Positions 4,455-34,765 are shown, counted from the first letter of the stretch. The stretch is DNA of 64,000 bases from Candidatus Omnitrophota bacterium (GCA_015233675.1 JADFXH010000001.1:140563-204562); one strand, 5' to 3'. Made by a program: numbers and translations. The notes: a model not told the origin generated them from the sequence alone.

Positions 4455-4479
4455 ATTTTTATAGGGGCCCTGACCCTGG

Positions 4480-4680
4480 TTCTGCTAAAAATCCGCTTCC
4501 AAATGACGCGGGGCCTGTCCTTAGTCTCAACGTTAAGGTGCTCCTCAGACGGGGGACAACCTTAACAGCAGCACCAACGGTGGTTTCCCCTAAACCTCCC
4601 CCTTGTGCAGGTGCCGTGCGCGCCTTAACATTGAGACTAAGGACACCCGCTAATCCATGTTTTCATAAAAATTCTGACAC
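4480..4680. mobile_element. Copy 1 of a ~200-bp hairpin-rich intergenic insertion element (MITE-like), flanked by 7-bp direct repeat ACCCTGG
   Basis: By-eye alignment gives about 90 percent identity to 13249-13448. Internal 22-nt inverted repeats lie at 4517-4538 and 4623-4644 (21 of 22 complementary). Direct repeats ACCCTGG lie at 4473-4479 and 4682-4688. Confidence 0.6.
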
Positions 4681-4693
4681 AACCCTGGCCCTA

Positions 4694-5458
4694 TTAAATC
4701 CTAAAAAATGTTCTCGCATTGGCGTTTACCGCAGCCAAGGTCTTTTGCGCATCCAAATTCTTTAACAGGGCCAACGCCTTCAATGTTCTTATCACATCTT
4801 TTGGTTCGGCCGCAAAAACCGTTTCTCCATCTTTATAATTGACCGGCGAATCTGTTTCAACAAGAATCCTTCCTATCGGAGCATGCGACATGGCCTTCTG
4901 TGACTCAGGACTATAGGCAACACTGGGAGATGTCGACACATAAAAACCAGCCTCAAGGATTTTATCAAGAATCTCTACAGGGCCGCTGTACCAGTGAAAT
5001 AACGCCCGCGTTACTCCGTACTCAAGGCTCAACTTCAAACAATCCCTCCATGCCCCGCGGCTATGAATGACAATAGGCAGATCAAACTCGCGGGCCAAAC
5101 CTAAATGAAAGCGGAAGGAATCTTTTTGCTTTTGACGCTCCGTTTCATCTTTGCGTACCCATTTATACCAATAATCCAAACCAGTTTCACCGATGGCACA
5201 GGCCTGTTTGATGTTCGAGCGCATAAAATCACAAGCCGTCTGCAAGGTGTCCGGTTGGACCTTCCCCGGATGCACGCCTAAAGCAGGATGAATTTTAGGC
5301 TGCCGGTATTGACCCGCTAACTTCAAAAGCCTACTCATGGAACCCAAATCAACGCTCATGGCCACTATGTCACTGACTCCCGCTTCGTGCGCCCGCATCA
5401 AGGAACCAGACAAGTCCTCTATTTCATCAATGTGGGCATGAGAATCAATGATGGTCAT
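4694..5458 (-). CDS. tatD: TatD-family metal-dependent hydrolase/DNase
   Basis: Carries MTIIDSHAHIDE at the N-terminus, HWYSG and VETDSP motifs, and has the 254-aa length typical of TatD. Confidence 0.85.
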   Translation of the reverse strand: MTIIDSHAHIDEIEDLSGSLMRAHEAGVSDIVAMSVDLGSMSRLLKLAGQYRQPKIHPALGVHPGKVQPDTLQTACDFMRSNIKQACAIGETGLDYWYKWVRKDETERQKQKDSFRFHLGLAREFDLPIVIHSRGAWRDCLKLSLEYGVTRALFHWYSGPVEILDKILEAGFYVSTSPSVAYSPESQKAMSHAPIGRILVETDSPVNYKDGETVFAAEPKDVIRTLKALALLKNLDAQKTLAAVNANARTFFRI

Positions 5459-8255: not shown

Positions 8256-8347
8256 TGTGGATACTCCATGCGCGTGAAGGAGAAACAGTTATTATGTTTA
8301 GCTCTTCGGAGTTTTGAATGGGGAAAATCAGAGGCGTCCAATGGTGG

Positions 8348-8367
8348 ATTCCCGCTTGCGCAGGAAT
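8348..8367. repeat. REP-like GC hairpin (ATTCCCGC-TT-GCGcAGGAAT) between convergent genes; possible bidirectional terminator
   Basis: The stem-loop is visible in the sequence. Translated, it gives the VDSRLRRND / PACAGMT-type pseudo-peptides that I associate with a widespread intergenic hairpin repeat. Confidence 0.35.
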
Positions 8368-9661: not shown

Positions 9662-9669
9662 ACCCTTTG

Positions 9670-9697
9670 ATTATGCCAAAACTACAATATAATTCAA
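9670..9697 (-). promoter_or_regulatory. Putative sigma70-type promoter for recO (TTGAAT-N16-CATAAT), about 8 nt upstream of the ATG
   Basis: On the minus strand the -35 TTGAAT is at 9697-9692 and the -10 CATAAT is at 9675-9670. This is part of a ~60-80-bp duplicate of the pilin/exeA intergenic cassette at 15339-15400. Confidence 0.4.
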
Positions 9698-10081
9698 GGT
9701 AATGTGCAACGATTTTTATTAATTTTAAGCTCCCTGATAAATCCGGGATTAACAGGATATTTTTCGTTAACAACCGCTGCCGTTAGTTACACAAATACCA
9801 CCACCAGGGATCGTAACAACTCCGGTAGAACTTATAGTAAACGAAGGCACTGTTAAAGATACAGCATTCGCACCAACAGATGCAAAAGCTGTCCATCGTT
9901 GACGCATATATATGATTTTTATTAACAATCCTATTTATGTGTCCAATAAATAAGAAAAAACGAAAAAAAACATTATTTTTTATAAACATTATCATTTTAC
10001 GGGATATATGCTTATAAACGAGAGTAAATTGAAATATTTAGAGGAGGGGAAAGGGGGACGGAATCAAGCCGGCACGGGGAT

Positions 10082-11287
10082 TTAATTCTGTAATTCTTGC
10101 CGTGAGCCATATATGACGGACGGCCCGATCCCTTCGATCATCGGCAACCCGTTTGTGCCTAAAGTATAAAGTTCTGCGATTTCAGCGGAGGACAAAGCGC
10201 GGTTGTAAACACGCAGGTCGTCCATATAACCATAAAACCAATCAGTACCCAGACCTATGTATTGCGGTGTTGCGGTATTAGTAATAGATCCCGTTATCGC
10301 AGAAGAACTTTGTGAAGAACCGACTTGTCCCCCGTTTAAATAAAGATTAATCCCGGTTGCACTGCCACGATGCACGGTAACAGCAACATGTTGCCAGGCT
10401 AGCGCGGTTACGCCTACCTTAAGAACCATCTCTGTAGCAATAGTCCCATCTCCCATCTTAAAATGCAGGGCTCCGGGTTGGGGACTACTGTAGAGCCCTT
10501 CATTAACATCTAAAGCATAGCCTTGATAATTGCCAGTGAAACCCATTTTATTGACTATGCCGATAGGGTCCGTACTCCCCAGATAAATCCAACAAGAAAT
10601 ACTAAAATCTCCCGTACCAAAATCAAGACTTGTAGAATCTGATGCAGTAACAAATTGCCCCACCCCATTAAAACTCAACGCCCCGGCGCCTAGATGCCCT
10701 GTGTACCACGCAGGGTTGTTATGACACGCCCCGTTGTTGCCATTACCGCTGGAATCTAAAATTGGCGTACCTGAACTTGAACAAGTACCGGAAGTCCCTT
10801 CATCAAATTTCCACCAGCCCATTAAACCTGATGGTTGGGTGACACGAACCTGAATGGTCCTGGTTAATCCATTATAAGTGCCCGCGGATGTTATCTGGAT
10901 CTTATCACCCCAATTTACAACCCATATCGTATAACTGGAAACTCCCGCGTCTAACGATTCTTGACACGGCGGAGTCGGTGTGCCTGTGCCTACACATGCA
11001 CCCGGCGCAGTGCCTGCCGCGGCATAATTGCCCGAGCCAGCGGGATATGGCGTTGTCCGCCATGTGCCGTTCGTCGACCCGTCAGGAGCCGCATGCGGGG
11101 GTGTTAAATAATAAATAGCTTTGTTTATCCCCGCTTCCGCAAGATATAAAGCCTGTGTGTTGGCAACCTGGGCGCTGGCGTTGGTGCTGTTTAACATGAC
11201 CGTATTAAGGTACACCACGGCCAGGACCGTCAAACAAACCATCATGATCATGGTCATTAATAAAACACTGCCTTTGTGAGAAAACAT
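10082..11287 (-). CDS. PilX-like minor pilin with C-terminal LamG (concanavalin A-like lectin) domain
   Basis: The N-terminus KGSVLLMTMIMMVCLTVLAVVYL followed by ALYLAEAGINKAIYYL resembles the PilX N-terminal domain. The C-terminal half has WWKFDE...LDSSGNGNNG...LSFNG...DDLRVYNRALSSAEI, typical of Laminin_G_3-type LamG domains. Confidence 0.7.
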   Translation of the reverse strand: MFSHKGSVLLMTMIMMVCLTVLAVVYLNTVMLNSTNASAQVANTQALYLAEAGINKAIYYLTPPHAAPDGSTNGTWRTTPYPAGSGNYAAAGTAPGACVGTGTPTPPCQESLDAGVSSYTIWVVNWGDKIQITSAGTYNGLTRTIQVRVTQPSGLMGWWKFDEGTSGTCSSSGTPILDSSGNGNNGACHNNPAWYTGHLGAGALSFNGVGQFVTASDSTSLDFGTGDFSISCWIYLGSTDPIGIVNKMGFTGNYQGYALDVNEGLYSSPQPGALHFKMGDGTIATEMVLKVGVTALAWQHVAVTVHRGSATGINLYLNGGQVGSSQSSSAITGSITNTATPQYIGLGTDWFYGYMDDLRVYNRALSSAEIAELYTLGTNGLPMIEGIGPSVIYGSRQELQN

Positions 11288-11288
11288 A

Positions 11289-12410
11289 CTAATTCCCTAA
11301 CCCCGTGTTATAAAGTTGAGAAATTTCGCTGGCGGATAAAGCGCGATTATAAATACGCACATCAGCCATTGACCCATAATATGTTTGAGCATAATTTTTT
11401 TCTCTTCCAATGTAGGCCGCCGGGCAAGAAAAGGTCTGATTGATTGTCCCTTGTTGCATTCCATTCGCAAAAAGCGTTGAAGTGCCACTTATCTGGACAA
11501 ACACCAGATGAGTCCAGACATTCGGAGTCAACGCATATGAAGGTGAATAAATGTAATCGTTGACACCATAGTGAGTAAACCCCACGGGCTGATTGCTATA
11601 TTGTTCTGCACGGACGCTATAGACCCCATCATCTACAACTGAAGAATACTCTATTGTTGGTAACGAAACAGAAACTGGTTTAACCCAAGCCGCTACTGTG
11701 CATGGGGCGGGTTGAGTCGTGAAAGCAGTGTTCACGAATTGATTCGTTCCATTAAAACTCAACCCACCGACTACCGTGCTTATCTGGCCTGCTGCCCATG
11801 TTGGGCCGCTGACACACGTTCCCGTATTACCATTACCGCTGGAATCAACCACTGTTGAACACGAACCGGTGACAGTAGGATACACATCATCAAATCTCCA
11901 CCAACCCACCAGCCCTATCGGCATGTTTCTTGGGCTGACATTGCTTTGCAAGCGGACTCTTTCAGCATTTTGCACGGCCGTCATGTCAATGGCCACTAAA
12001 CTGTTGCTGCAAGTAAAAATTTTCGGGATGGTCCCGCCGTTGGGGGTCTGTATGCCTGTTGCCTTGACCACCGACAGCCCGGACTGGTCATCCTTTCTAA
12101 CTAAATTGGAACCACTTAAAGCGTAGGTATAATTGTTGACTAAATCCGGACTGAAAGTCACGCAAGGCGACGAAGTCGATGAACAATTAGAAGTCGTGGA
12201 GCATTCCGTAATGCTTTGGGCGTTATACAGTTCCCGGGTCATTAAATCCATGGCTTGTAAAAGTTTTGTCCTGACGGTCGTCCGGTCCTGACCGGCATTA
12301 AAAGCGCGGAAGCATGCCAGATAAGCATATACTATACCAGTCACCAAAAACAGCATCATGGCCATTGAAATTATCAATTCAAGTATAGTAAATGCGCTTT
12401 TGTTTTTCAT
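11289..12410 (-). CDS. Prepilin-type minor pilin (PilW-like) with C-terminal LamG domain
   Basis: It has a class III signal (MKNKSA|FTILELIISMAMMLFLV). The C-terminal WWRFDD...VDSSGNGNTG...LSFNG...ADVRIYNRALSASEI region is paralogous to the LamG part of the downstream gene. Confidence 0.7.
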   Translation of the reverse strand: MKNKSAFTILELIISMAMMLFLVTGIVYAYLACFRAFNAGQDRTTVRTKLLQAMDLMTRELYNAQSITECSTTSNCSSTSSPCVTFSPDLVNNYTYALSGSNLVRKDDQSGLSVVKATGIQTPNGGTIPKIFTCSNSLVAIDMTAVQNAERVRLQSNVSPRNMPIGLVGWWRFDDVYPTVTGSCSTVVDSSGNGNTGTCVSGPTWAAGQISTVVGGLSFNGTNQFVNTAFTTQPAPCTVAAWVKPVSVSLPTIEYSSVVDDGVYSVRAEQYSNQPVGFTHYGVNDYIYSPSYALTPNVWTHLVFVQISGTSTLFANGMQQGTINQTFSCPAAYIGREKNYAQTYYGSMADVRIYNRALSASEISQLYNTGLGN

Positions 12411-12414
12411 GGCA

Positions 12415-12849
12415 TTAAGAAGGTTGCACTAATAATGTCGTTAATGAAACTGAATTTTGCACCAAGCCAAGAGCCCAAGAAACATAAACTGTGGCTACTG
12501 TTACTGGATTAGTATTTGTACCTGCCCCGGTATAAACAGTCGTTACATAAGGCGACCAAGTTGTGACCGTGTAAAGGATAACTTGCCTGCTATAGTTTGA
12601 AAAAGCTCCCGTTAGAGGGGCAAGCCCTGTAGGGAAAGTCGTAGTGTTAATATTCGCATAAGCAGTATTTTTAACGGCCTCCATCTGTTCTTGGGCTAAA
12701 TTCAGGGCAACGGATTGTCCTTCGACGGATTTGTCCGCATATAAGCCGCTAGACACGGCATTGACAACGCCCACCACTCCCAAAACAACCAAGACGGTTG
12801 ACAATAATATTTCTATTAACGTAAAACCTTTTTTATCAAAACAGTTCAA
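12415..12849 (-). CDS. Prepilin-type minor pilin (PilV-like)
   Basis: Carries MNCFDKKG|FTLIEILLSTVLVVLGVVGVV, an N-terminal cleavage/methylation motif. The product is 144 aa. It has an ATGA overlap with the upstream gene. Confidence 0.7.
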   Translation of the reverse strand: MNCFDKKGFTLIEILLSTVLVVLGVVGVVNAVSSGLYADKSVEGQSVALNLAQEQMEAVKNTAYANINTTTFPTGLAPLTGAFSNYSRQVILYTVTTWSPYVTTVYTGAGTNTNPVTVATVYVSWALGLVQNSVSLTTLLVQPS

Positions 12850-13223
12850 GAAGACGGCCTTTCTTTTTCTTTGGAAACGACCCGGGAAGAAGGCGGAGAC
12901 ACTTCATCGCCGGCAACCGGAAGCCCCAGCTGGGCGCGTTTAGCATCCATAGCTTTTTTATGTTCTTCAAACATGGCCCTTATTTTTAGCCTCAAATCCC
13001 TGACCTTTTGCATTTCCTCTTTCATTTGCTCACGCAATGATTCATCTTCTTCACGGAAATGTTCTATCATTGCCCTTAATTCCCCAAGTTTCTGTTTTCT
13101 GGCTTCCATGCCCGTCGAATTCTGCACTGGTTGCCCCGTGGCCGGCGTCCCTTGAGCATGAGCCTTGCCAGAAAAACCGCTGATTAAACATGCCCCTAAA
13201 ACCATTACCCATAATTTTCTCAT
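12846..13223 (-). CDS. Secreted helical/coiled-coil protein of unknown function
   Basis: The start is moved to ATG 13223 (MRKLWVMVLGACLISGFSGKAHA signal peptide), with GGAGGA 6 nt upstream. The mature part is charged and helical (ELRAMIEHFREEDESLREQMKEEMQKVRDLRLKIRAMFEEHKK). Confidence 0.65.
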   Translation of the reverse strand: MRKLWVMVLGACLISGFSGKAHAQGTPATGQPVQNSTGMEARKQKLGELRAMIEHFREEDESLREQMKEEMQKVRDLRLKIRAMFEEHKKAMDAKRAQLGLPVAGDEVSPPSSRVVSKEKERPSS

Positions 13224-13248
13224 CGTTTCCTCCTCGCCTATCAAATGG

Positions 13249-13448
13249 TTCTGTCAAAATTCCGCTTCTAGATGACGCGGGTCCTGTCCTTAGTCTCAAC
13301 GTTAAGGTGCTCCTCAGGCGGAGGCAACCTTAACAGCAGCACCAACGGTGGTTTTCCCTAAACCGCCCCCTTGAGCAGGTGCCGTGCGCGCCATAACATT
13401 GAGACTAACGACACCCGCTAATCCATGTTTTCATAAAACTTTTGACAC
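13249..13448. mobile_element. Copy 2 of the ~200-bp hairpin-rich insertion element, flanked by 11-bp direct repeat CCTATCAAATG
   Basis: About 90 percent identical to 4480-4680 and in the same orientation. Direct repeats lie at 13237-13247 and 13451-13461; the right one overlaps the pilin stop codon. The internal inverted repeats are at 13286-13307 and 13391-13412 (19 of 22 complementary). Confidence 0.65.
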
Positions 13449-13454
13449 TACCTA

Positions 13455-15341
13455 TCAAATGCATACATTGCTTGAACAATTGTTGCTCAGACAATCTGTG
13501 GAAGCATTACATCCATACCCTGATAAGCCAGCAGAGCATCCCCAAGAAGAACAAATGGTGTTTGGGCTTGCACAGTCTGCGCCAGTATCACAATTATCTC
13601 CCATACCGCCAGTATTACATGTCCCCGTATAAGCATTACAAATGGGATACCCAATTGGACAGTCTGACGGACTACTACAGGAAGCCTGCAGAGGGTTAGC
13701 CGTGCACCCAATTCCCCAAGCACAATTGGGATATGCACTTGAACAGTCTGAGCTAGAACTACACCCCACCCCCTGTCCGCCAGTACTACATTGTCCATTA
13801 CTATTACAAAAATATCCGATTGGACAGTTTGCCGAACTTGTACACATGGCCCCCTGAGCGATTGCAGAGCATGTACCATTACAATATCCGCTTACACAGT
13901 CTGAGGGAGCAGAACACTCTGCCCCTGCCCCGCCGGCACTGCATGTACCCGTCGTACTGGAACAAATATGGGCTCCGGTTGTGCTTGCACAATCTGAGTT
14001 GCTGCTACAGGTCCCCCCATTAACAACACATACAAAAAAACTATTGCTACAAGTATAAGGAGATATACAGTCTGCGTTATTAAAACAGCCAACCCCCGGC
14101 TTGCCACTACTACAACTCGAAAAAGTATTACAAATGTATCCGATGGGACAGTTTGCGCTACTAAAGCACTGACTCCCCGCACCATCAGTAGTGCATACAC
14201 CATTAGAACAATATGGAGCTGCGATTAAACAGTCTGCATTACTATTACATCCAACACCCGGAGCACCAGTACTGCACATAGGCCAATAAAACGCTCTACA
14301 AATTGGAACGCCGCTTGGACAGGTTGCTCCAAAACAATCAGCCCCTTGAGGGTCAGAAGTACATTCATTCCAAACACAATACAATCCGCTTGCACAGTCT
14401 GCGGCAGAAGAACACGGGACTCCCACCCCGCCGGTACTGCATCCAAAAGTTTGAGAAGAACAAATAGGAGCTATGCTCGAACAGTCTGCGTTGCTGTTAC
14501 AGCCGACATCCGGACCGCAATAGCCCGTGCCGCATGTACTTCCGCACGTATCATCCCCGCAAGTTTTAGCACCACAACTATGGCTGCAACAGATGCCCGC
14601 ATAACAGCTCATGCCGTTTGGACAAACCGTACCACAAGCACCGCAGTTTTGAGTGTCGTTACTTAGGTTTGTGCTAGTCCCATTGCACCCTGTTTGGCCA
14701 CTAGCGCAGCAGGTCCCATTGATACAGCTCTGCCCGGCACTACAGACAGCAAGGCTGGTACCGCAAGCGCTGTTATTTGCGCTCACATCAGTGCAGGCCC
14801 CACTCACACAGCGCCGGCCGCCTGAACATCCGCCGCAAGCGTCTGTTCCTGTCCCTCCTGCCGCGCCTCCTCTAGGCGAAGAGGTTGCGCTAACATTACA
14901 GCCGGTACCGTTAGTTACGCAAATGGCATTATTAGCCGCAGTCACGACACCAGAACTACTATCAGTTGACACTGTTCCACTGCCCCCGGGGCCTTTAGAA
15001 TAAATAACGTAATATTGACCGGAAAGCTGGTAGCCATATTCCGTAGTATTGCCCGCGACAAAAGGATCGTATAAAGCATGCCTTAAGACCTGAGGCGTTG
15101 CCGCCGCTAAAACAGAAGAACCCAATGAGGCGCTCGAAGTAGGATAGGCATGCGGATTGGAATTTAAATAATAAGATGTGACTGCGGCCTGCAATGTTTT
15201 AAGCTCAGCTTCGACCAAAGAGGTCCTTGCCATATTCTGGATGCCTTTGAAACTGGGCAGCCTGACGCTGATCATAAGAACCACAACACCAAGAACAACA
15301 AGCAATTCCACTATGGTGAAGGCTTTATTTTGTACAATCAT
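13455..15341 (-). CDS. Type IV pilin-like protein with very large cysteine-rich repeat extension
   Basis: It has a class III signal (MIVQNKA|FTIVELLVVLGVVVLMI) and a pilin-like first ~135 aa. About 480 aa follow, carrying about 75 Cys in tandem modules of the form C-x3-4-[SA]-[DN]-C-x3-7-C-x4-8-C. Confidence 0.8.
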   Translation of the reverse strand: MIVQNKAFTIVELLVVLGVVVLMISVRLPSFKGIQNMARTSLVEAELKTLQAAVTSYYLNSNPHAYPTSSASLGSSVLAAATPQVLRHALYDPFVAGNTTEYGYQLSGQYYVIYSKGPGGSGTVSTDSSSGVVTAANNAICVTNGTGCNVSATSSPRGGAAGGTGTDACGGCSGGRRCVSGACTDVSANNSACGTSLAVCSAGQSCINGTCCASGQTGCNGTSTNLSNDTQNCGACGTVCPNGMSCYAGICCSHSCGAKTCGDDTCGSTCGTGYCGPDVGCNSNADCSSIAPICSSQTFGCSTGGVGVPCSSAADCASGLYCVWNECTSDPQGADCFGATCPSGVPICRAFYWPMCSTGAPGVGCNSNADCLIAAPYCSNGVCTTDGAGSQCFSSANCPIGYICNTFSSCSSGKPGVGCFNNADCISPYTCSNSFFVCVVNGGTCSSNSDCASTTGAHICSSTTGTCSAGGAGAECSAPSDCVSGYCNGTCSAIAQGAMCTSSANCPIGYFCNSNGQCSTGGQGVGCSSSSDCSSAYPNCAWGIGCTANPLQASCSSPSDCPIGYPICNAYTGTCNTGGMGDNCDTGADCASPNTICSSWGCSAGLSGYGCNASTDCLSNNCSSNVCI

Positions 15342-15347
15342 AACTTG

Positions 15348-15375
15348 ATTATGTCAAATTTATGATATAATTCAA
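15348..15375 (-). promoter_or_regulatory. Putative promoter of the Cys-rich pilin gene (TTGAAT-N16-CATAAT), 6 nt upstream of the ATG (near-leaderless)
   Basis: On the minus strand the -35 is at 15375-15370 and the -10 is at 15353-15348. The pilin ATG is at 15341 and has no Shine-Dalgarno sequence. Confidence 0.4.
15363..15371 (+). promoter_or_regulatory. Putative extended -10 promoter (TGaTATAAT) for the exeA-like gene, 8 nt upstream of its ATG
   Basis: TGATATAAT is read directly at 15363-15371. The exeA-like ATG is at 15380. It overlaps the divergent pilin promoter within a 38-nt intergenic region. Confidence 0.4.
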
Positions 15376-15379
15376 GGTA

Positions 15380-16201
15380 ATGTACAAGGATTTTTATAAG
15401 TTCAAGGAACACCCTTTTAACATTACCTCCGACCCTGATTTCTTTTTCTCGTCTACGCGCCACGAAGAGGCCTTCAATCATCTGGCCTACGGGATTGGCT
15501 CGCGAAAAGGCATTATTGTCATCACCGGTGAAATAGGCACGGGCAAAACTACCCTTTGCCGCACCCTGCTTAACCGTTTGGATAAAACAGTTAAAACCGC
15601 GCTGATCCTAAACCCCAATTTTTCGGACCTGCAGCTGCTGCAATTGATCATCAACGATTTGGATATCCGCTATACTAAAAAAACTAAACTTGACCTGGTA
15701 GGAGCCATCTCCCTGTTTTTACTTGAAGAGTCCGCCAAAGGGCACAATGTGGCCGTTATCATCGACGAATGCCAAAACCTCAACATCCGCCAGTTGGAAC
15801 AAATCCGGCTATTATCCAATCTTGAAACTGAAAAGGAAAAGCTGCTGCAAATTATTTTAGTCGGCCAGCCGGAATTGGGCGAAAAACTTAAAAACCCTGC
15901 CCTTCGTCAACTGACCCAGCGGGTAACCGTGCGCTACCATATCCTCCCTTTGCAAAAACATGAGATTGAGAATTATATCTATCACCGCTTGAAAATTGCC
16001 GGAGGTGCGCCTCAACTTCATTTTACACCGCAGGCTATTGACGCTATTTTTAACGTCTCCCAAGGCATCCCCCGCGTCATCAATATCCTCTGCGACCGCG
16101 CCCTCTTGGCCGGATTCTCCAGGGAGACCTTCACCATTGACCATTCCTTAATCCAGGAAAGCGCAAAGGAGACACAGTTTTCTTATGAGTATCATTCATG
16201 A
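15380..16201 (+). CDS. exeA: ExeA/GspA/MshM-family AAA ATPase
   Basis: Carries FFFSSTRHEEAFNHLAYGI..., GIIVITGEIGTGKTTLCR (Walker A) and VIIDECQNL (Walker B). The 273-aa length is typical of ExeA-like secretin-assembly ATPases. Confidence 0.75.
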   Translation: MYKDFYKFKEHPFNITSDPDFFFSSTRHEEAFNHLAYGIGSRKGIIVITGEIGTGKTTLCRTLLNRLDKTVKTALILNPNFSDLQLLQLIINDLDIRYTKKTKLDLVGAISLFLLEESAKGHNVAVIIDECQNLNIRQLEQIRLLSNLETEKEKLLQIILVGQPELGEKLKNPALRQLTQRVTVRYHILPLQKHEIENYIYHRLKIAGGAPQLHFTPQAIDAIFNVSQGIPRVINILCDRALLAGFSRETFTIDHSLIQESAKETQFSYEYHS

Positions 16202-28249: not shown

Positions 28250-31200
28250 CTAACCATACACCTGTGAATGTCCGGTTTGAACCACACCTAAGAAATCCTT
28301 TAAATTCATCATCGGCTGGATATTGACAATCACCGGCACAAAGCCCGGGGCATTTTGGAGTTTTTGGAGCATGGCAGGGTCAATGCGAAATTTAATCCCT
28401 TCATTAGAATTTTGAGTCTGCAAATTCATATTAGCAGGAGTTAAATCAATACCCCCTTTCTGAAAAACATTCATCGCCTTATCATTCTTTTCGAAAGCAT
28501 CCTCACCTTTTATCTTATCCAAAATTTGCTTAGCACTGTTTGGATTATCTAAAATTATATAAACAAAACCGATCGCTTTAGAAATAATATCAACATCCAA
28601 CGAATTTTTTTCTCCTTCATTCCGGCTTTCCCTTACTAAAAAAAATCTAATCCCTTGATCAACTAAATTATAATCATGATAGGATTTATCAAAAATTTCA
28701 TTTGTATATTGGACTAACCTTCTTAAGATTTTCTCCCAACTTAACTTTTTTTCTCTCATTTTAATTAACAATGTTATTGCATTTTCTTTCGGATTTTTTG
28801 TCGGATCCATCTTGCCCAAGGCTCCAGGCTTAAAGGATTTATTTATCATCGCTTTATCCGCCACACCCAATTGGGCGCTTTGCCCAACCATCCCCATTTC
28901 GCCCCTAGCCTTACCGACTTTTTCCCACATACTAGACAAGCCATCACCCCCGCTAGGGTCATAGTTTACTCTTTGAAAACCCTCAATCTCTGACGTTTGC
29001 TTGTCCCTTCCTCCTTCATTAAGTAACAAAATGCCTCCCGGGCTTAACTGTCGTAAAATTTCGTTGAAAAATAAAAAGGACACCTTTAAATGCAGGCCTC
29101 TAGGATAAAAAATATCAAATCCGGACCTTAATTCTTCTATTTGATCGGGATTACTCTTTGACGCATCAGCCCTATATAACACAATCTGCCTGTCTATACC
29201 CTCAAAATCAAATGTCAGCGTTATTTTTTCATGAGACCCAGCATTTTTTGTTCTTAAAACGGTCAAATTCCTTCCTCCTTGGGAAAATATCGTTGCCCTA
29301 TACCTATCCACGAAACTGTCTATATCCTCCCCCTCCAGCGGATCTATCCCTACAACTTGATGAATCCCTTTGATATTAAAAATAGGGTCTATGTCCGCCC
29401 CCATACCAGGATAATACAGCACCCCTGTTTTAGCTTTAAAAAAAACATTCAAATCTTGATAAAAATCCTTAATACTATCCCAATATTCATCGGGATAATA
29501 AGGATGGTTTATTAAAAATACTCTGTCGGCAAAGAATTTCATTAATGGTTCACTATTTAAATTCTCAGCTATTTTATACCCGTTCAAATAAAATCTTTCT
29601 ATGGCTTTTAATGTCACACAGCTTCCCATTAAAGTTGCGTCAAGAGCCATATTCTTCAGTACGAATTTCGCATTATAGAATCCAGCACTAGCTTTCATCG
29701 CCTGATCCTGCCGGGCCGATTGGGTGCTGTCCTCAATTTTTGAGGGTTGCCCCAATACCAACCCCCTGCTGGTCATACGATATATCCTTTGCCCAATGTT
29801 ATCTACGCCCTCCCGGGACGAATCGGGTAATCTGATAATTTCAGCCACATTCTGATAAAAATTAATTCTGATGTTGATACCATACGTTTCAAATAATAGC
29901 TTTTCAAAATTTTTTAATGCATCCACTGCTTCTTTATTTAAATCTTCTCTGCCTGGCTCAACTAACGCCTGGGCCACTTCATTGGGATCACCGGTCCCAT
30001 ACCCAACCTTGTCTTCAATAAAAAAATAAAAATTTTCTAATTCGGGCATGACTTTACGCAAAGTGTACACATCCACTAATAGCCGGCCTTTAGGCTTCAG
30101 GGCCTTAACAAATTTTGAAAAAAGTTTTGTGCTCTGTGGACTTTGGGCAAGAGCATAAGTTAAAGAGAAAGTGCCGATCATTAGGTCAAGTTGATCCTCA
30201 CCGTAATCCAGGCTTTTAAAATCTGCGGTCAACGGCTGAATATCCACATTGTTGGGAACGACCGTATTGTACCTTACTTTTACCGCGTCAAATTTCTGTT
30301 CATTCCTCAAAAATTTCTTCAAAGAACTCTGGACTCTATCAGAAATATGATATCTCCCCCATTCCCTTCTAAGAGTATAAGTTTCATTTTCCGATTCTCC
30401 TGTTGTCATTTTTAATATTTTCGATATCTCTCCTTCGTCTTTAGAAATAACAGCTAATTCGATCGGACGTTTACTATGCCCTGCGCTTAATACTGACATC
30501 ACCTCAAACAATTGGGGCGATTCAGAAACACCGTCCTTCTCATACATTCCAGGCCCCATCAAGGCAACTTTTAGACTATGCTCCGTATTGTCGTCGTTTG
30601 ACTTTAACAACAAATCATAAAGCGCAGGGTAACGAAGCGGCCATGTTATAGTACTACTAATCATTTCTCCTTTGAATGCAGCCAATACCGGGTTAATGGC
30701 CCTTAAATAATCTACATATTTTTCTGTGTGGATCGTAAAAATCTCATCGATGTCCCCTTCATTGCGAATAAATTCTGAATAGGTAATTAATCTTCTTAGT
30801 GAATCGTTGGCTTGTTCTTCATTGATTTTTCTGTTTTGCAAAGCTTGACGTATGCCTTCTTGAAAGAATTCCAAATCTTCATCCGGGAAAAGATAGGCCA
30901 AATGATGGTCTCCTTTGATACCCAAACGATAAGGAATGCGTTTAAGCCTATTAGGAGTATCTTTAATAGCATTTAAAATAAATTCCCCATAAGTTTTTCC
31001 TTCCGGCGCCTTAAAAGTGCGATCAAGCATTACCCAATATGGCCCATAAATGTCAGGCCGGGCAAAAGTTTTAATATACCTTTTATTACCAAATGGCCCG
31101 TAATACCTATCATCTATGGATAAACCTATAGCCGCTGAAGCAACCCCAAAGGCAAAGCACTTTAATACTGTGCCAATATATTTTGGTTCCGGATTTTCAA

Positions 31201-34200
31201 TAAAATTGTTCAGTGCGCTTAACAAGCCCTGTCCCGCAATCATTGATCCCAATATCATATTAGATTGGGCCATCAGAGACATCATCTGGGAAAAACTCAA
31301 AAAGGACTTTTTTATCTTTTGGTCTAATATAATATTCAGCATTGCTTTTTTCTTTGATTCCCTGTCCTTTTTAATCCAACTTTCTCCCAAATGTACCCCG
31401 ACCCCATGCCCCCAATAGCCCCTTTTTGCCGCCAATGCAATAATTTTTTCAGTGATATCGGACGAATTGATCAAGCCATTAAATTTCGATTCTAAAGGGT
31501 CCGATTTCTTGCCAGTCATAGCCTGATCAAACTGGGCCGGATCATAAAGCACAGATGGCACGGCCGTGGGGGGTATTTCTTTTCTCCAATCAATGAACTT
31601 ACTCTGGTCTACCTTTCCTAAAAGTATCTTAAATGCTGCCCCGCGTGTTCCATGCGAAAAAAACACACCTGTATCGCCATCTAATAACCGGTCCAAATCT
31701 TCCAGCTCCTTTTTTGACTGTTCTAAGAATCGGATAAAGTCATCCCCTCCGCCCACAGAAACAGCGGCATTATAACCCCGATAGGCCTGGCTTACCTTAA
31801 GGGCTAAAGGGCCCATTTTCTCTTCAATTATTTTATCCGATTTGTTCTCGAACTCCCCAAAGCTCATTTCAGCAAGCCCTTCCCGCGGCTCCCCTTCAAA
31901 ATCGAAATGCATGGCCTCCATAGCCGGTTGTGCCGTCTGAAAAGCTCTGAATAAAGGACTCCTGAAATAATGAATTGGTTTTTTCTCCTCTTTTAATATG
32001 CCTTGCAGTTTATCCACTACTGAGAGCGCCTGATTTTCACCATGGGTACTCAGCTGATTTAAAAACGGATCATCAACATTGCCTTGATATCGAGGCCGAT
32101 TTTGATCCCTTTTCCCTTCTTCAATTAAATGGGTATCCCCGTGACGAATAAAAATTATCTTAGATTTTAACCGCAGGGGCTTGAAATCTTTCCCATAATA
32201 AAGTTTTCCATTTCTCCATTCCAAACCTAATTCCTTTAATATTCCCGCTTGTTCTTCATCAGGGACAAACCGTGCCTGCTTTGGGTCCCAGGGTTTCTCG
32301 CTTACCTGTGCATTACTCATCGCCCAGTCCTGATCGGCCCGTTGGGAAGTGTACCAATTTTTACCTCCCCTCAAGGGTCCCAAAACAAATTCCCGGTGTG
32401 GCAATTGCTGACTATTGTTTAAAACATTTTCTCGAAATTTTAAGAATAATGCATCAACATCACTTAACCACTGCTTGTTAGAGTCATAATTTAAATAGGT
32501 TGGGGACCGAAACCCCATCACATCATTAATGGGCAAACCAAGCCTCTTAAAAGTTTCTTCCAGCACCTTAAAAGTTTGTTCAACTTGCTGAACATTAAGA
32601 TGATATTTAATAGGTTCGTCCAACCCCTTAATTGACCGCAAATCATCATGCTCTTTCTGAAAAAGCGAAAAGAAATCATAATCAATATTCACAAAAATCG
32701 GTCCGGGATATTCAGATAATTTGTATGGTTTTCCAAAAACATCAGCCTCAGCTTCATCCAGAGTAGACAATCTTGACGCATACTTACCTTTAATATCTTT
32801 GAATATATCCAGCTCACTGTTAAATAATATTCGATCCGGCTTAGGTTCAAACCAGCGCCTGCCATCATCTGGTTCCCCCAAAGGCTCTCCAAACAAAGAA
32901 AAAACTATTCTAGGGGCCTGTATTTTCCCTTCTTGATCAAATAAACCTCCTTTTGTCATAAATCCATCTGCAGGAATAACCGTACCCACTTTTACGGCAT
33001 TAATAGATTCAAGGGTAAAAGCCCAGCTAGCGTCCCTTTTGATTTCTCGAGCAGATAACCCCCCAATAGGTTTTATAGCGCTCTCTATAGCATTATACCT
33101 ATCATGATGCGGATCAACATTGATGACTAAAATTGGCCAACCGTGATCTAATCCGACCATACGGACAGTATGAACAATATTCAACATGTCCCCATGCTTG
33201 TTAGAAATGGGATATTCCACTGGCTTATCTGTAACCCATGATGGATTGCTGCTCAAAACTTTGTCTTGATGAATATGGGCTAGCGCTTGTTGATAGAGGG
33301 TGAAAAATTTAGTTGTTTTATTTAGTAATGAAGCCGCAGGGTTAGCTTGATCTATACGGCAATTCACAACTACCTTCGGAGAAGATTCTTTATCAAGCAT
33401 GGCAGCATCTGTTGTCACTCTTAATATTTCCTGCGGCCTTGAAGATGTTGACCGGTTAGAAAGAAGCGCCAAGTCCGTACCACCTGAAAAATATTTTCTT
33501 GGGACATTCTCTTGGGTTGTAGGATTAATTTCATCTTTTATATAGTTGTAAACGCCTTTTTTGAAGGCTTGAAGGTAGCGTTGGTAGATGAGTTGAACGT
33601 CACTGCTTTCAGGCGATTGGTTGTTTCCCTGGGGCGCTTTCGCATTCAAAACTACCTCGCTTGGCAACGTGCTTGGGGACACATTTTTTTGTTGTTCTTT
33701 ATTGAACATGTCCCCTGGTTGCCCTCCCCTGGTTGGCGGCGCTGGTATGACACTTTGATCATAGCCTACCCCAGCCACTTTATTTTTATCCGCGTACACT
33801 TGAGCCAAAATACTGTCTTTGATTTTCTTCTTGTACCATGTCGCCAATATTAACGAATTGTAGACTTGCCGCAGTTGGGCGAAATTTCTGCCTTCATTGA
33901 CTTCTTTGATTAATTCGGGGATGACGATCTCGTGGACGATTTGGGAGGCTAAAGAGTTGGTGTCTTTGTTTGGCAGGCGGCGTTCGGAGATGTGTCCTCT
34001 GGTTGGCTCTTGATTTTTTGACAAAGCTAAATAATCTTGCTCAAGCATTACCTTAAGTTTTGACTCAACTACATACGCCGTCCCTGCCTGAGCATTCTCA
34101 TATACCATTGCCTTTTCGGGAACTATCCACACTTTATTAAAAGTATTTACCGGAATGTTGGTGGAGCCAAATATCTTCGCAGTTTTTTCATAGATACGCT

Positions 34201-34699
34201 TCCAAAACTTTTTACCGATTTCACCTTCCGGATAAACCAAACTGGCGGTGATCTGTTTGAGCATGTAGTCTTCCGCCAAAAGGTCCCTGCCCATTTCCGT
34301 TAAGCCAAAACTTTGTGGAATAATGCGGTCTTTTTCGTAAGGTGAAAGATTGACCCACAGGTCTTTTTCAGGGATGGTTAAGGAGGCAAGGAAATATTTG
34401 ATGAGTTTGGTGGCTCCTTGTTTAAGATCTCGCCCTCCCCTTGCCCCTCCCTCCAAGGGAGAGGAATTCTTACCAACAAAGACAGAAGAATCACCTTGAT
34501 CTAAAATAAAATCAAGTCGAAAAGGATTTTCAGTATGGACTTTGAGGCCTTTTAATATGGGGGAGTTATATTCGGGGCTTAAACCGACACGCACACCGGG
34601 TGTAGGCAAACGGAATTCCTGGGCATAAACGGGAGACGTCCCATATACACTTGTTATTAAAAAACACAAGATAGTAAGGATTAAAATTAACTTTTTCAT
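28250..34699 (-). CDS. Giant secreted multidomain protein (2149 aa from ATG 34699) with histidine-phosphatase and two methyltransferase-like regions
   Basis: All residue numbers below use track-ORF numbering. The signal peptide is MKKLILILTILCFLITSVYGTSPVYA. Residues ~853-1037 carry IIFIRHGD, SPLFRAFQTA and FFSHG, matching the histidine phosphatase superfamily. Residues ~1384-1555 (ALMGPGM...LKPKGRLLV) and ~1766-1905 (YYPGMGAD...LSPGGILLL) look like Rossmann-type methyltransferases. Residues ~510-690 carry INVDPHHD and VNIDYDFF, which are arginase/deacetylase-like metal motifs. Confidence 0.75.
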   Translation of the reverse strand: MKKLILILTILCFLITSVYGTSPVYAQEFRLPTPGVRVGLSPEYNSPILKGLKVHTENPFRLDFILDQGDSSVFVGKNSSPLEGGARGGRDLKQGATKLIKYFLASLTIPEKDLWVNLSPYEKDRIIPQSFGLTEMGRDLLAEDYMLKQITASLVYPEGEIGKKFWKRIYEKTAKIFGSTNIPVNTFNKVWIVPEKAMVYENAQAGTAYVVESKLKVMLEQDYLALSKNQEPTRGHISERRLPNKDTNSLASQIVHEIVIPELIKEVNEGRNFAQLRQVYNSLILATWYKKKIKDSILAQVYADKNKVAGVGYDQSVIPAPPTRGGQPGDMFNKEQQKNVSPSTLPSEVVLNAKAPQGNNQSPESSDVQLIYQRYLQAFKKGVYNYIKDEINPTTQENVPRKYFSGGTDLALLSNRSTSSRPQEILRVTTDAAMLDKESSPKVVVNCRIDQANPAASLLNKTTKFFTLYQQALAHIHQDKVLSSNPSWVTDKPVEYPISNKHGDMLNIVHTVRMVGLDHGWPILVINVDPHHDRYNAIESAIKPIGGLSAREIKRDASWAFTLESINAVKVGTVIPADGFMTKGGLFDQEGKIQAPRIVFSLFGEPLGEPDDGRRWFEPKPDRILFNSELDIFKDIKGKYASRLSTLDEAEADVFGKPYKLSEYPGPIFVNIDYDFFSLFQKEHDDLRSIKGLDEPIKYHLNVQQVEQTFKVLEETFKRLGLPINDVMGFRSPTYLNYDSNKQWLSDVDALFLKFRENVLNNSQQLPHREFVLGPLRGGKNWYTSQRADQDWAMSNAQVSEKPWDPKQARFVPDEEQAGILKELGLEWRNGKLYYGKDFKPLRLKSKIIFIRHGDTHLIEEGKRDQNRPRYQGNVDDPFLNQLSTHGENQALSVVDKLQGILKEEKKPIHYFRSPLFRAFQTAQPAMEAMHFDFEGEPREGLAEMSFGEFENKSDKIIEEKMGPLALKVSQAYRGYNAAVSVGGGDDFIRFLEQSKKELEDLDRLLDGDTGVFFSHGTRGAAFKILLGKVDQSKFIDWRKEIPPTAVPSVLYDPAQFDQAMTGKKSDPLESKFNGLINSSDITEKIIALAAKRGYWGHGVGVHLGESWIKKDRESKKKAMLNIILDQKIKKSFLSFSQMMSLMAQSNMILGSMIAGQGLLSALNNFIENPEPKYIGTVLKCFAFGVASAAIGLSIDDRYYGPFGNKRYIKTFARPDIYGPYWVMLDRTFKAPEGKTYGEFILNAIKDTPNRLKRIPYRLGIKGDHHLAYLFPDEDLEFFQEGIRQALQNRKINEEQANDSLRRLITYSEFIRNEGDIDEIFTIHTEKYVDYLRAINPVLAAFKGEMISSTITWPLRYPALYDLLLKSNDDNTEHSLKVALMGPGMYEKDGVSESPQLFEVMSVLSAGHSKRPIELAVISKDEGEISKILKMTTGESENETYTLRREWGRYHISDRVQSSLKKFLRNEQKFDAVKVRYNTVVPNNVDIQPLTADFKSLDYGEDQLDLMIGTFSLTYALAQSPQSTKLFSKFVKALKPKGRLLVDVYTLRKVMPELENFYFFIEDKVGYGTGDPNEVAQALVEPGREDLNKEAVDALKNFEKLLFETYGINIRINFYQNVAEIIRLPDSSREGVDNIGQRIYRMTSRGLVLGQPSKIEDSTQSARQDQAMKASAGFYNAKFVLKNMALDATLMGSCVTLKAIERFYLNGYKIAENLNSEPLMKFFADRVFLINHPYYPDEYWDSIKDFYQDLNVFFKAKTGVLYYPGMGADIDPIFNIKGIHQVVGIDPLEGEDIDSFVDRYRATIFSQGGRNLTVLRTKNAGSHEKITLTFDFEGIDRQIVLYRADASKSNPDQIEELRSGFDIFYPRGLHLKVSFLFFNEILRQLSPGGILLLNEGGRDKQTSEIEGFQRVNYDPSGGDGLSSMWEKVGKARGEMGMVGQSAQLGVADKAMINKSFKPGALGKMDPTKNPKENAITLLIKMREKKLSWEKILRRLVQYTNEIFDKSYHDYNLVDQGIRFFLVRESRNEGEKNSLDVDIISKAIGFVYIILDNPNSAKQILDKIKGEDAFEKNDKAMNVFQKGGIDLTPANMNLQTQNSNEGIKFRIDPAMLQKLQNAPGFVPVIVNIQPMMNLKDFLGVVQTGHSQVYG

Positions 34700-34710
34700 T
34701 ATATTCTGGA

Positions 34711-34719
34711 AGTATAACA
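34711..34719 (-). promoter_or_regulatory. Putative extended -10 promoter (TGTTATACT) of the giant gene, implying a very short leader
   Basis: The reverse complement of 34711-34719 is TGTTATACT. The ATG at 34699 lies 11 nt downstream of the hexamer and there is no Shine-Dalgarno sequence. Confidence 0.35.
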
Positions 34720-34765
34720 CGTGTATTTATATACTGCCAATTCAAGGAAGGAAGTTGAAGGAAGT

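Follow-up and report, generated by a model that had tools for sequence, protein, structure and literature searches.

Correia elements (CREE, Neisseria), ERIC, RUP and BOX are foldback elements of 100–250 bp located in the intergenic spacers of operons. Transcripts of these elements form long hairpins that can be cleaved by RNase III or alter mRNA stability; Correia elements duplicate TA. The IS6/IS26 family of insertion sequences is characterized by 8-bp target repeats, conserved GG tips, and the motifs cTGTt and caaa, and it contains two MITEs, of 227 and 336 bp (Varani et al., PMC7986276). The consensus of the IS6/IS26 terminal inverted repeats (TIRs) is GGTTCTGTTGCAAA; every IS but one keeps G1, G2 and G7, clade III has A at position 10, and variation is greatest at positions 3–4 (Harmer and Hall, PMC6807381).

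The element described here occurs twice in a 64-kb stretch of Omnitrophota DNA (hereafter the window, i.e. the whole stretch that was analyzed). We consider it probable that this element is a MITE, i.e. a non-autonomous DDE transposon without a gene of its own, most likely of the IS6/IS26 type. The kind of element is already known and this example is new; no published description of such an element in Omnitrophota was found in the literature searched.

Extent, termini and family assignment of the element

Positions 4477–4684 and 13246–13452 of the window are 91.8% identical over 208 alignment columns, on the same strand and with one 1-nt indel (blastn, E = 1.9 × 10−82), in full agreement with the original prediction, which had recognized a repeat of about 90% identity in the same orientation with a single 1-nt indel. 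Outside the two copies, the sequences are unrelated and the flanks do not align (blastn), and no third copy was detected in the 64-kb window with blastn (word size 7), nhmmer --max or a covariance model. The two copies are placed as follows:

4478–4684, plus strand: putative MITE copy 1, 207 bp, 52% G+C; extent from the homology with copy 2, from (T)GG to ACC, and from the nhmmer envelope (4478–4684)
Location of copy 1: between the tatD stop codon (4694–4696) and the start of the DUF3352 gene (4454), a junction that relatives have without the element
13247–13452, plus strand: putative MITE copy 2, 206 bp; extent from blastn and nhmmer
Location of copy 2: between the stop codon of the 628-aa prepilin-type gene (13455–13457) and the start of a 125-aa gene (13223)

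With GG...CC taken as the tips, the lengths of 207 and 206 bp fit the single 1-nt indel. The copies differ at 17 of 207 positions, and these differences, which are scattered along the element, include the TIRs; the copies thus look old and decaying, and the scatter is as would be expected under neutral decay.

In copy 1, one reading frame has no stop codon, and an ORF of 75 aa with a GTG start is present at 4538–4765, but the frame is broken in copy 2, and a six-frame translated query against 5.8 billion proteins, aimed at spurious ORFs over related copies, gave no match. The earlier statement that the element encodes no ORF is thus nearly, though not strictly, correct: no frame is open in both copies and, as in MITEs generally, a length below ~500 bp is combined with the lack of shared coding capacity.

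The repeats within and around the two copies are the following:

4470–4477: left target-site duplication of copy 1, CTGACCCT; 7/8 identical to 4685–4692, period 215
4478–4490, plus strand: left TIR of copy 1, GGTTCTGCTAAAA; over the first 14 nt, 11/14 positions agree with the IS6/IS26 consensus (p = 7 × 10−5 against background)
4516–4541: left arm of the long internal hairpin of copy 1; 26 nt, 92% complementary to 4620–4645, forming a 28-bp stem in folds
4620–4645: right arm of the long internal hairpin of copy 1, from the inverted-repeat search; 78 nt between the arms
4672–4684, minus strand: right TIR of copy 1, GGTTGTGTCAGAA read inward; 9/14 to the IS6/IS26 consensus
4685–4692: right target-site duplication of copy 1, CTGGCCCT; ends 1 nt before the tatD stop codon
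13239–13246: left target-site duplication of copy 2, TATCAAAT; 8/8 identical to 13453–13460, period 214
13247–13259, plus strand: left TIR of copy 2, GGTTCTGTCAAAA; its first 8 nt equal the IS6/IS26 consensus exactly
13285–13310: left arm of the long internal hairpin of copy 2; 26 nt, 85% complementary
13388–13413: right arm of the long internal hairpin of copy 2, with two uncompensated substitutions
13440–13452, minus strand: right TIR of copy 2, GGTAGTGTCAAAA read inward; 13 nt, 85% complementary to the left arm
13453–13460: right target-site duplication of copy 2, TATCAAAT; holds the upstream stop codon (TCA, i.e. TGA on the minus strand, 13455–13457)

The tips of the element are GG...CC in both copies. 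An independent repeat search found the TIR pair of copy 2, GGTTCTGTCAAAA / TTTTGACACTACC, complementary at 11 of 13 positions; the pair of copy 1 is more decayed. The 13-nt arms of copy 2 (85% complementary) contradict the earlier view that the element has no obvious terminal inverted repeats. Moreover, the outer ~70 nt of either end, long stem included, are gapped inverted repeats of each other, and the sole part outside these repeats is a G+C-rich, non-palindromic core of ~78 nt. The internal inverted repeat had been recognized before, as one of 22 nt enclosing a core of ~85 nt; its presence is confirmed, whereas its measures have to be amended to 26 nt, 92% complementary, and 78 nt apart.

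The duplications are read as 8 bp long at both of the two sites available, namely, TATCAAAT twice (8/8) around copy 2 and CTGACCCT/CTGGCCCT (7/8, differing by one transition) around copy 1, as in the IS6/IS26 family. Their periods, 214 and 215, agree with the single 1-nt indel between the copies, and this register gives symmetric GG...CC tips. A 10-bp reading also fits: CC precedes the left 8-mer in both copies, so that the flanking repeats are readable as CCCTGACCCT/CCCTGGCCCT at copy 1 and as CCTATCAAAT twice at copy 2, and a 10-bp duplication with asymmetric tips is equally likely by likelihood. However, the 10-bp reading entails unequal tips (GG vs. TA/AA), an unusual situation for DDE elements; because such elements normally have matching tips, the 8-bp reading is preferred.

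The original prediction had set the boundaries differently, describing an element of no recognized family and without obvious TIRs that inserted into a hairpin loop and is flanked by a 7-bp repeat. Under this reading, the element would run from 4480 to 4681 and make duplications of variable length (7 bp at copy 1 and 11 bp at copy 2); if the length were variable, a mechanism based on microhomology or target priming would be suggested. The repeats in question are perfect: ACCCTGG (7/7) is found at 4473–4479 and 4682–4688, and CCTATCAAATG (11/11), which was missed in the initial list, flanks copy 2. Furthermore, removal of the element in either register rebuilds a small hairpin at copy 1, and the predicted flank ATAGGGGCC...GGCCCTAT is present, although its stem carries a 1-nt bulge. 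However, these repeats, with periods of 209 and 214, imply elements of 202 and 203 bp, the ends of which are shifted by 2 nt relative to the alignment of the copies. The 7-mer does not follow the register of the duplication (period 209 vs. 215) and arises as a by-product because the target is CCCTGR-periodic and the element supplies GG and ACC at its ends. The existence of the 13-nt TIRs in copy 2 and the absence of both a reverse transcriptase and a poly-A-like tail also argue against this reading, as does the target of copy 2, which has no hairpin; the rebuilt hairpin of copy 1 was found in no relative examined. Hence this version appears quite unlikely, and we retain the 8-bp duplications and the GG...CC tips.

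The four ends of the element match the IS6/IS26 consensus GGTTCTGTTGCAAA at 11, 9, 10 and 8 of the 14 positions (p = 7 × 10−5, 3 × 10−3, 5 × 10−4 and 1.3 × 10−2, respectively, against the background of all 14-mers of the window), a likeness that was spotted post hoc, among the families considered. All four ends carry G1, G2 and G7. Each of them has A instead of the highly conserved G10, which fits the clade III variant only, and CAAA of the IS6/IS26 tip aligns only via a 2-nt gap. The initial remark that no known family was recognized in the element is not supported: its tips match a published TIR consensus, and the 8-bp duplications are typical of the same family. A MITE of another DDE family with GG..CTGT tips and ~8-bp duplications (the IS1595/IS1016 group or ISL3), or of a family with 9–10-bp duplications, is an unlikely alternative. 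ISApl4 (IS1595 family) has the TIR GGGGCTGTACTAGA and 8-bp repeats, the related IS1016 elements have repeats of 7–9 bp, and ISArsp7 (ISL3) has a GGCTCTTCG... end and an 8-bp repeat; a 9–10-bp family would accord with the 10-bp reading of the flanks and would meet the same objection of unequal tips. When compared with the ends of the element, however, the TIR of ISApl4 matches at 6–7 and that of ISArsp7, GGCTCTTCGCGGTT, at 3–6 of 14 positions, i.e. near background in the one example taken per family, vs. 8–11 of 14 for IS6/IS26.

Under the preferred assignment to an IS6/IS26-type MITE, a DDE transposase encoded elsewhere would bind both ends of the element and make staggered cuts 8 bp apart in the target, the repair of which would produce the 8-bp duplication. 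Both the length of this duplication and the sequence of the tips point to an IS6/IS26-type (H-HTH + DDE) transposase, in which case movement would proceed via a cointegrate resolved by recombination. No homologue of the IS26 transposase, Tnp26, was detected in the window or in 196 kb of relatives by tblastn, a search that is weak for distant transposases. Two full copies and one truncated relative are known. A palindromic element derived from IS200/IS605 (PATE), which would have no TIR, no target duplication and subterminal hairpins, was ruled out by the TIRs and the 8-bp duplications.

Insertion sites and the corresponding loci in relatives

Both copies lie between co-directional minus-strand genes, as originally described. 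Read in the sense of these genes, the order at copy 1 is the tatD stop TAA, 1 nt, AGGGCCAG, element, AGGGTCAG, 15 nt, ATG, and the order at copy 2 is ATTTGATA, which holds the last codon and the stop (ATT-TGA), element, ATTTGATA, 15 nt with GAGGAGG, ATG. The target 8-mer starts 15 nt above the downstream ATG in both copies, and the end of the element is 23 nt from the ATG; under the boundaries of the original prediction, the distance of 25 nt to the ATG (4454 and 13223) that it gave is likewise correct for both. Both targets touch the end of the upstream gene, either 0–1 nt from the stop codon or overlapping it, and the original spacers were ~17–24 nt long. Since an insertion must spare the stop codon and the ribosome-binding site, ~13–20 positions would be allowed, so that the equal 23-nt distance seems to be only a mild coincidence. 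The duplication leaves both genes intact, which is why the insertions would be tolerated.

The DUF3352 locus was compared in 11 related contigs (L011–L013, L016–L018 and L040–L044), of which L044 duplicates L043 over the first ~15 kb, including the tatD-DUF3352 junction, leaving 10 loci to be counted. The neighboring genes encode TatD, D-Tyr-tRNA deacylase, a helicase, RecO and the DUF3352 protein; homologues are assigned to Candidatus Omnitrophica, and two proteins of the window are identical to the NCBI MAG proteins MBF0570355.1 and MBF0570365.1 (locus tags HQL12_). None of the 10 loci has the element at the tatD-DUF3352 junction (L011, L012, L013, L016, L017, L018 and L040–L043); the spacers there range from 4 to ~70 nt and are different in each; in L011, the spacer is 4 nt long and the DNA on either side of the junction is 84–86% identical to the window. 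The absence from 10/10 related loci indicates insertion in the window and lends support to the initial interpretation as an inserted, repeated, non-coding mobile element with target-site duplications. Presence and absence thus vary at orthologous junctions, and the element occupies several sites, i.e. those of the two window copies and of a diverged copy in L017. It is extremely unlikely that the element is ancestral and non-mobile and has been deleted from the relatives: even though none of the relatives examined has an exact empty site, in which the spacer would equal that of the window apart from the element, this would require independent precise losses at 10 loci. It would also leave unaccounted for the second copy, which occupies an unrelated site and has an 8-bp flanking repeat of its own, and the third, at another unrelated site in L017.

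Copy 2 lies inside a 5.6-kb segment (about 9730–15322) that is missing in L011 and L012, as well as in the RecO/AAA-ATPase synteny of L018 and L043. This segment codes for two LamG-domain proteins, two small proteins (one of the prepilin type) and a 628-aa Cys-rich prepilin-type protein, and it is bounded by a 58-nt direct repeat (9667–9724 and 15345–15402; 84% identical) that resembles a duplicated promoter region. The 628-aa protein (13455–15341, minus strand) has the prepilin-type N-terminus FTIVELLVVLG and Cys-rich repeats of ~27 aa (81-bp periodicity in the DNA); it has no Pfam match and, apart from the source MAG's own protein, no close match in the databases. A composite transposon made of the two direct copies was ruled out, given that each copy has its own duplication and that the synteny with L011 runs through the region.

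Several other features of the window and the related loci were recorded. In the tatD-DUF3352 spacer, where the window has copy 1, L013 (8311–8348) and L016 (6833–6871) have another hairpin, CCCCCTCTTTTTATAAAGAGGGG. A separate palindromic repeat, TCCCGCGAAAGCGGGAATCCAG, has 11 exact occurrences in L012, L016, L018, L040, L041 and L042, often in tandem and downstream of genes, and one degenerate copy with 3 mismatches in the window (8344–8365, minus strand); it probably represents a REP-like family of this group of Omnitrophota. A Y1_Tnp (IS200/IS605-type) transposase gene is inserted between a gltD-like gene and panB in one relative only (L018:14506–14934). Throughout the L011 and L012 loci, most genes are fragmented compared to the window and the other relatives, probably due to frameshift errors of long-read assemblies and not as real pseudogenes. 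In the window, an ORF of 2156 aa spans 28250–34720 (minus strand).

A diverged relative and the long hairpin

A diverged relative of the element is present at ~9391–9599 of L017 (GCA_041643115.1, Omnitrophota), with E = 3.7 × 10−4 in an nhmmer search with the two-copy profile and 140 bits with a covariance model that includes the L017 copy itself. The stretch that contains it is lineage-specific, with a 301-aa gene on one side and an ORF6N gene on the other; at this site, L013, L016, L018, L040 and L042 have other sequence or nothing. The L017 copy lacks the left ~20 nt of the element and retains the right end (GTTGTGCCAGATTTATG against GTTGTGTCAGAATTTTTATG; pattern GTTGTG(T/C)CAGA..TTT..ATG), the GCGGG/CCCGC helix, and the blocks GTTAAG(G)TGCTCCTYAG, GGTRCCGTGCGC and CTTAACAT. 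Its long stem has other sequence and is still paired, whereby 13 pairs are changed on both sides compared to the window copies, a number that was reached by 0/500 shuffles (slid controls, 0–3). A covariance model built from the three copies detected no further copies in 263 kb.

Wider searches were also negative. Among GTDB species genomes, the exact 20-mer AACAGCAGCACCAACGGTGG had 10 matches, all of them 20–21-nt chance matches in unrelated organisms. The exact pattern of both hairpin arms had one match in JGI metagenomes, in coding sequence, and nothing else aligned (the metagenome match, L014:2440–2485, is the coding sequence GGIDLNPANLNIETKG, a chance 20-nt identity unrelated to the element). 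In viral contigs, there were 0 matches to the 20-mer and 21 to a two-block motif, 0 of which were confirmed by nhmmer; plasmids and phages gave only 24–25-nt chance matches (blastn), and the TIR string appeared in the literature only in unrelated primer sequences. The lack of any other copy in the exact-word scans of GTDB species genomes and JGI metagenomes suggests that the family is very rare; the wider searches, including that of translated frames, require exact 19–20-mers or called ORFs, so that diverged copies like that in L017 would be missed.

The element folds strongly, with −94.6 kcal/mol (z = −5.5) for the minus-strand RNA and −74.6 (z = −4.3) for the plus strand; the better-folding strand is the same one in L017, at −65.9 (z = −3.3) vs. 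−57.9 (z = −1.1). It is conceivable, if rather improbable, that the element is a mobile structured RNA, i.e. that an RNA or single-stranded DNA hairpin is under selection for pairing and the transposon-like ends only spread it; candidate roles would be that of a small RNA or, inside operons, that of an element for stability or for processing of the RNase III type. The 13 pairs that are doubly changed yet still paired would be expected under such selection, as would the conserved blocks beside the stem (GCGGG/CCCGC, GTGCTCCTYAG and GGTRCCGTGCGC), and the better-folding strand, the same in the window and in L017, is the mRNA sense in both window copies. In L017, however, this strand is antisense to the neighboring genes, and the two window copies, when compared, show no compensatory change and two substitutions that break the long stem. 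A search against Rfam 15, on both strands of all copies, gave nothing at the gathering score (chance hits, E ≥ 0.03 and far below the cut-offs, differed between copies), and the hammerhead-like CUGAGGA comes without its GAAA partner. The RNA role is kept as a minority reading because long TIRs binding one transposase would co-vary likewise without any role as RNA, because the structure was drawn from these very three sequences, of which two are nearly identical, and because the core folds differently in L017. It is quite improbable that there exists, across Omnitrophota lineages, a small mobile module in which the hairpin and the motifs GCGGG/CCCGC and GCGCACGGYACC...CURAGGAGCAC (minus strand) are selected as RNA or single-stranded DNA; such a module would be a structured RNA not yet described, spread by transposition and transcribed as part of host operons.

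A type II hammerhead ribozyme, in which CUGANGA and GAAA cores are surrounded by three stems, was considered and rejected: CUGAGGA adjoins the long stem on the minus strand, but the GAAA site reads GCAC in 3/3 copies and there is no Rfam match. Retron RNA and bridge or omega RNA were ruled out as well, with no Rfam match and no partner gene. The scan for promoters and terminators inside the element found none; an outward promoter was rejected since, although copy 2 has a perfect TTGACA directed toward the downstream gene, the ribosome-binding site occupies the place of the −10 element.

For the preferred reading as a MITE, the position of both copies inside minus-strand operons makes co-transcription probable. 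A co-transcribed element would form a long RNA hairpin, with possible effects on processing or polarity like those of other bacterial MITEs.

Implications and comparison with known elements

These observations add a MITE, probably of the IS6/IS26 type, to the uncultivated phylum Omnitrophota and indicate how, even where operons are very compact, MITEs can insert precisely at the ends of genes, given that stop codon and ribosome-binding region are restored by the target duplication. With respect to annotation, the element accounts for two puzzling 240-nt spacers. If the hairpin indeed acted as RNA, it would represent a new RNA class; the present evidence favors the ordinary reading, i.e. a MITE.

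The element resembles Correia/CREE, ERIC, RUP and BOX as a foldback element of the 100–250-bp class in operon spacers, with no sequence relation to any of these; it differs from Correia elements in the duplication of 8 bp instead of TA, and its transcription is presumed from its position. The autonomous IS26 and IS257 share with it the GG..CTGT..CAAA tip motif and the 8-bp duplications. They encode, however, a 234-aa DDE transposase, whereas the present element encodes nothing, and IS26 itself (a control copy of 820 bp, with GGCACTGTTGCAAA at both ends) matches the present ends at only 7–9 of 14 positions. The closest counterparts are the IS6/IS26 MITEs MITEBth2 and MITEHarch3 (ISfinder; 227 and 336 bp), which are likewise small, have no transposase gene, keep both ends, and have GG tips with G7 and 8-bp duplications, a likeness judged from published features of the family (PMC6807381, PMC7986276). 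Compared to the IS6/IS26 MITEs, the element from uncultivated Omnitrophota has a TIR with A, not G, at position 10, which deviates from the consensus after position 8, and ends that extend to inverted repeats of ~70 nt with a 26–28-bp stem.
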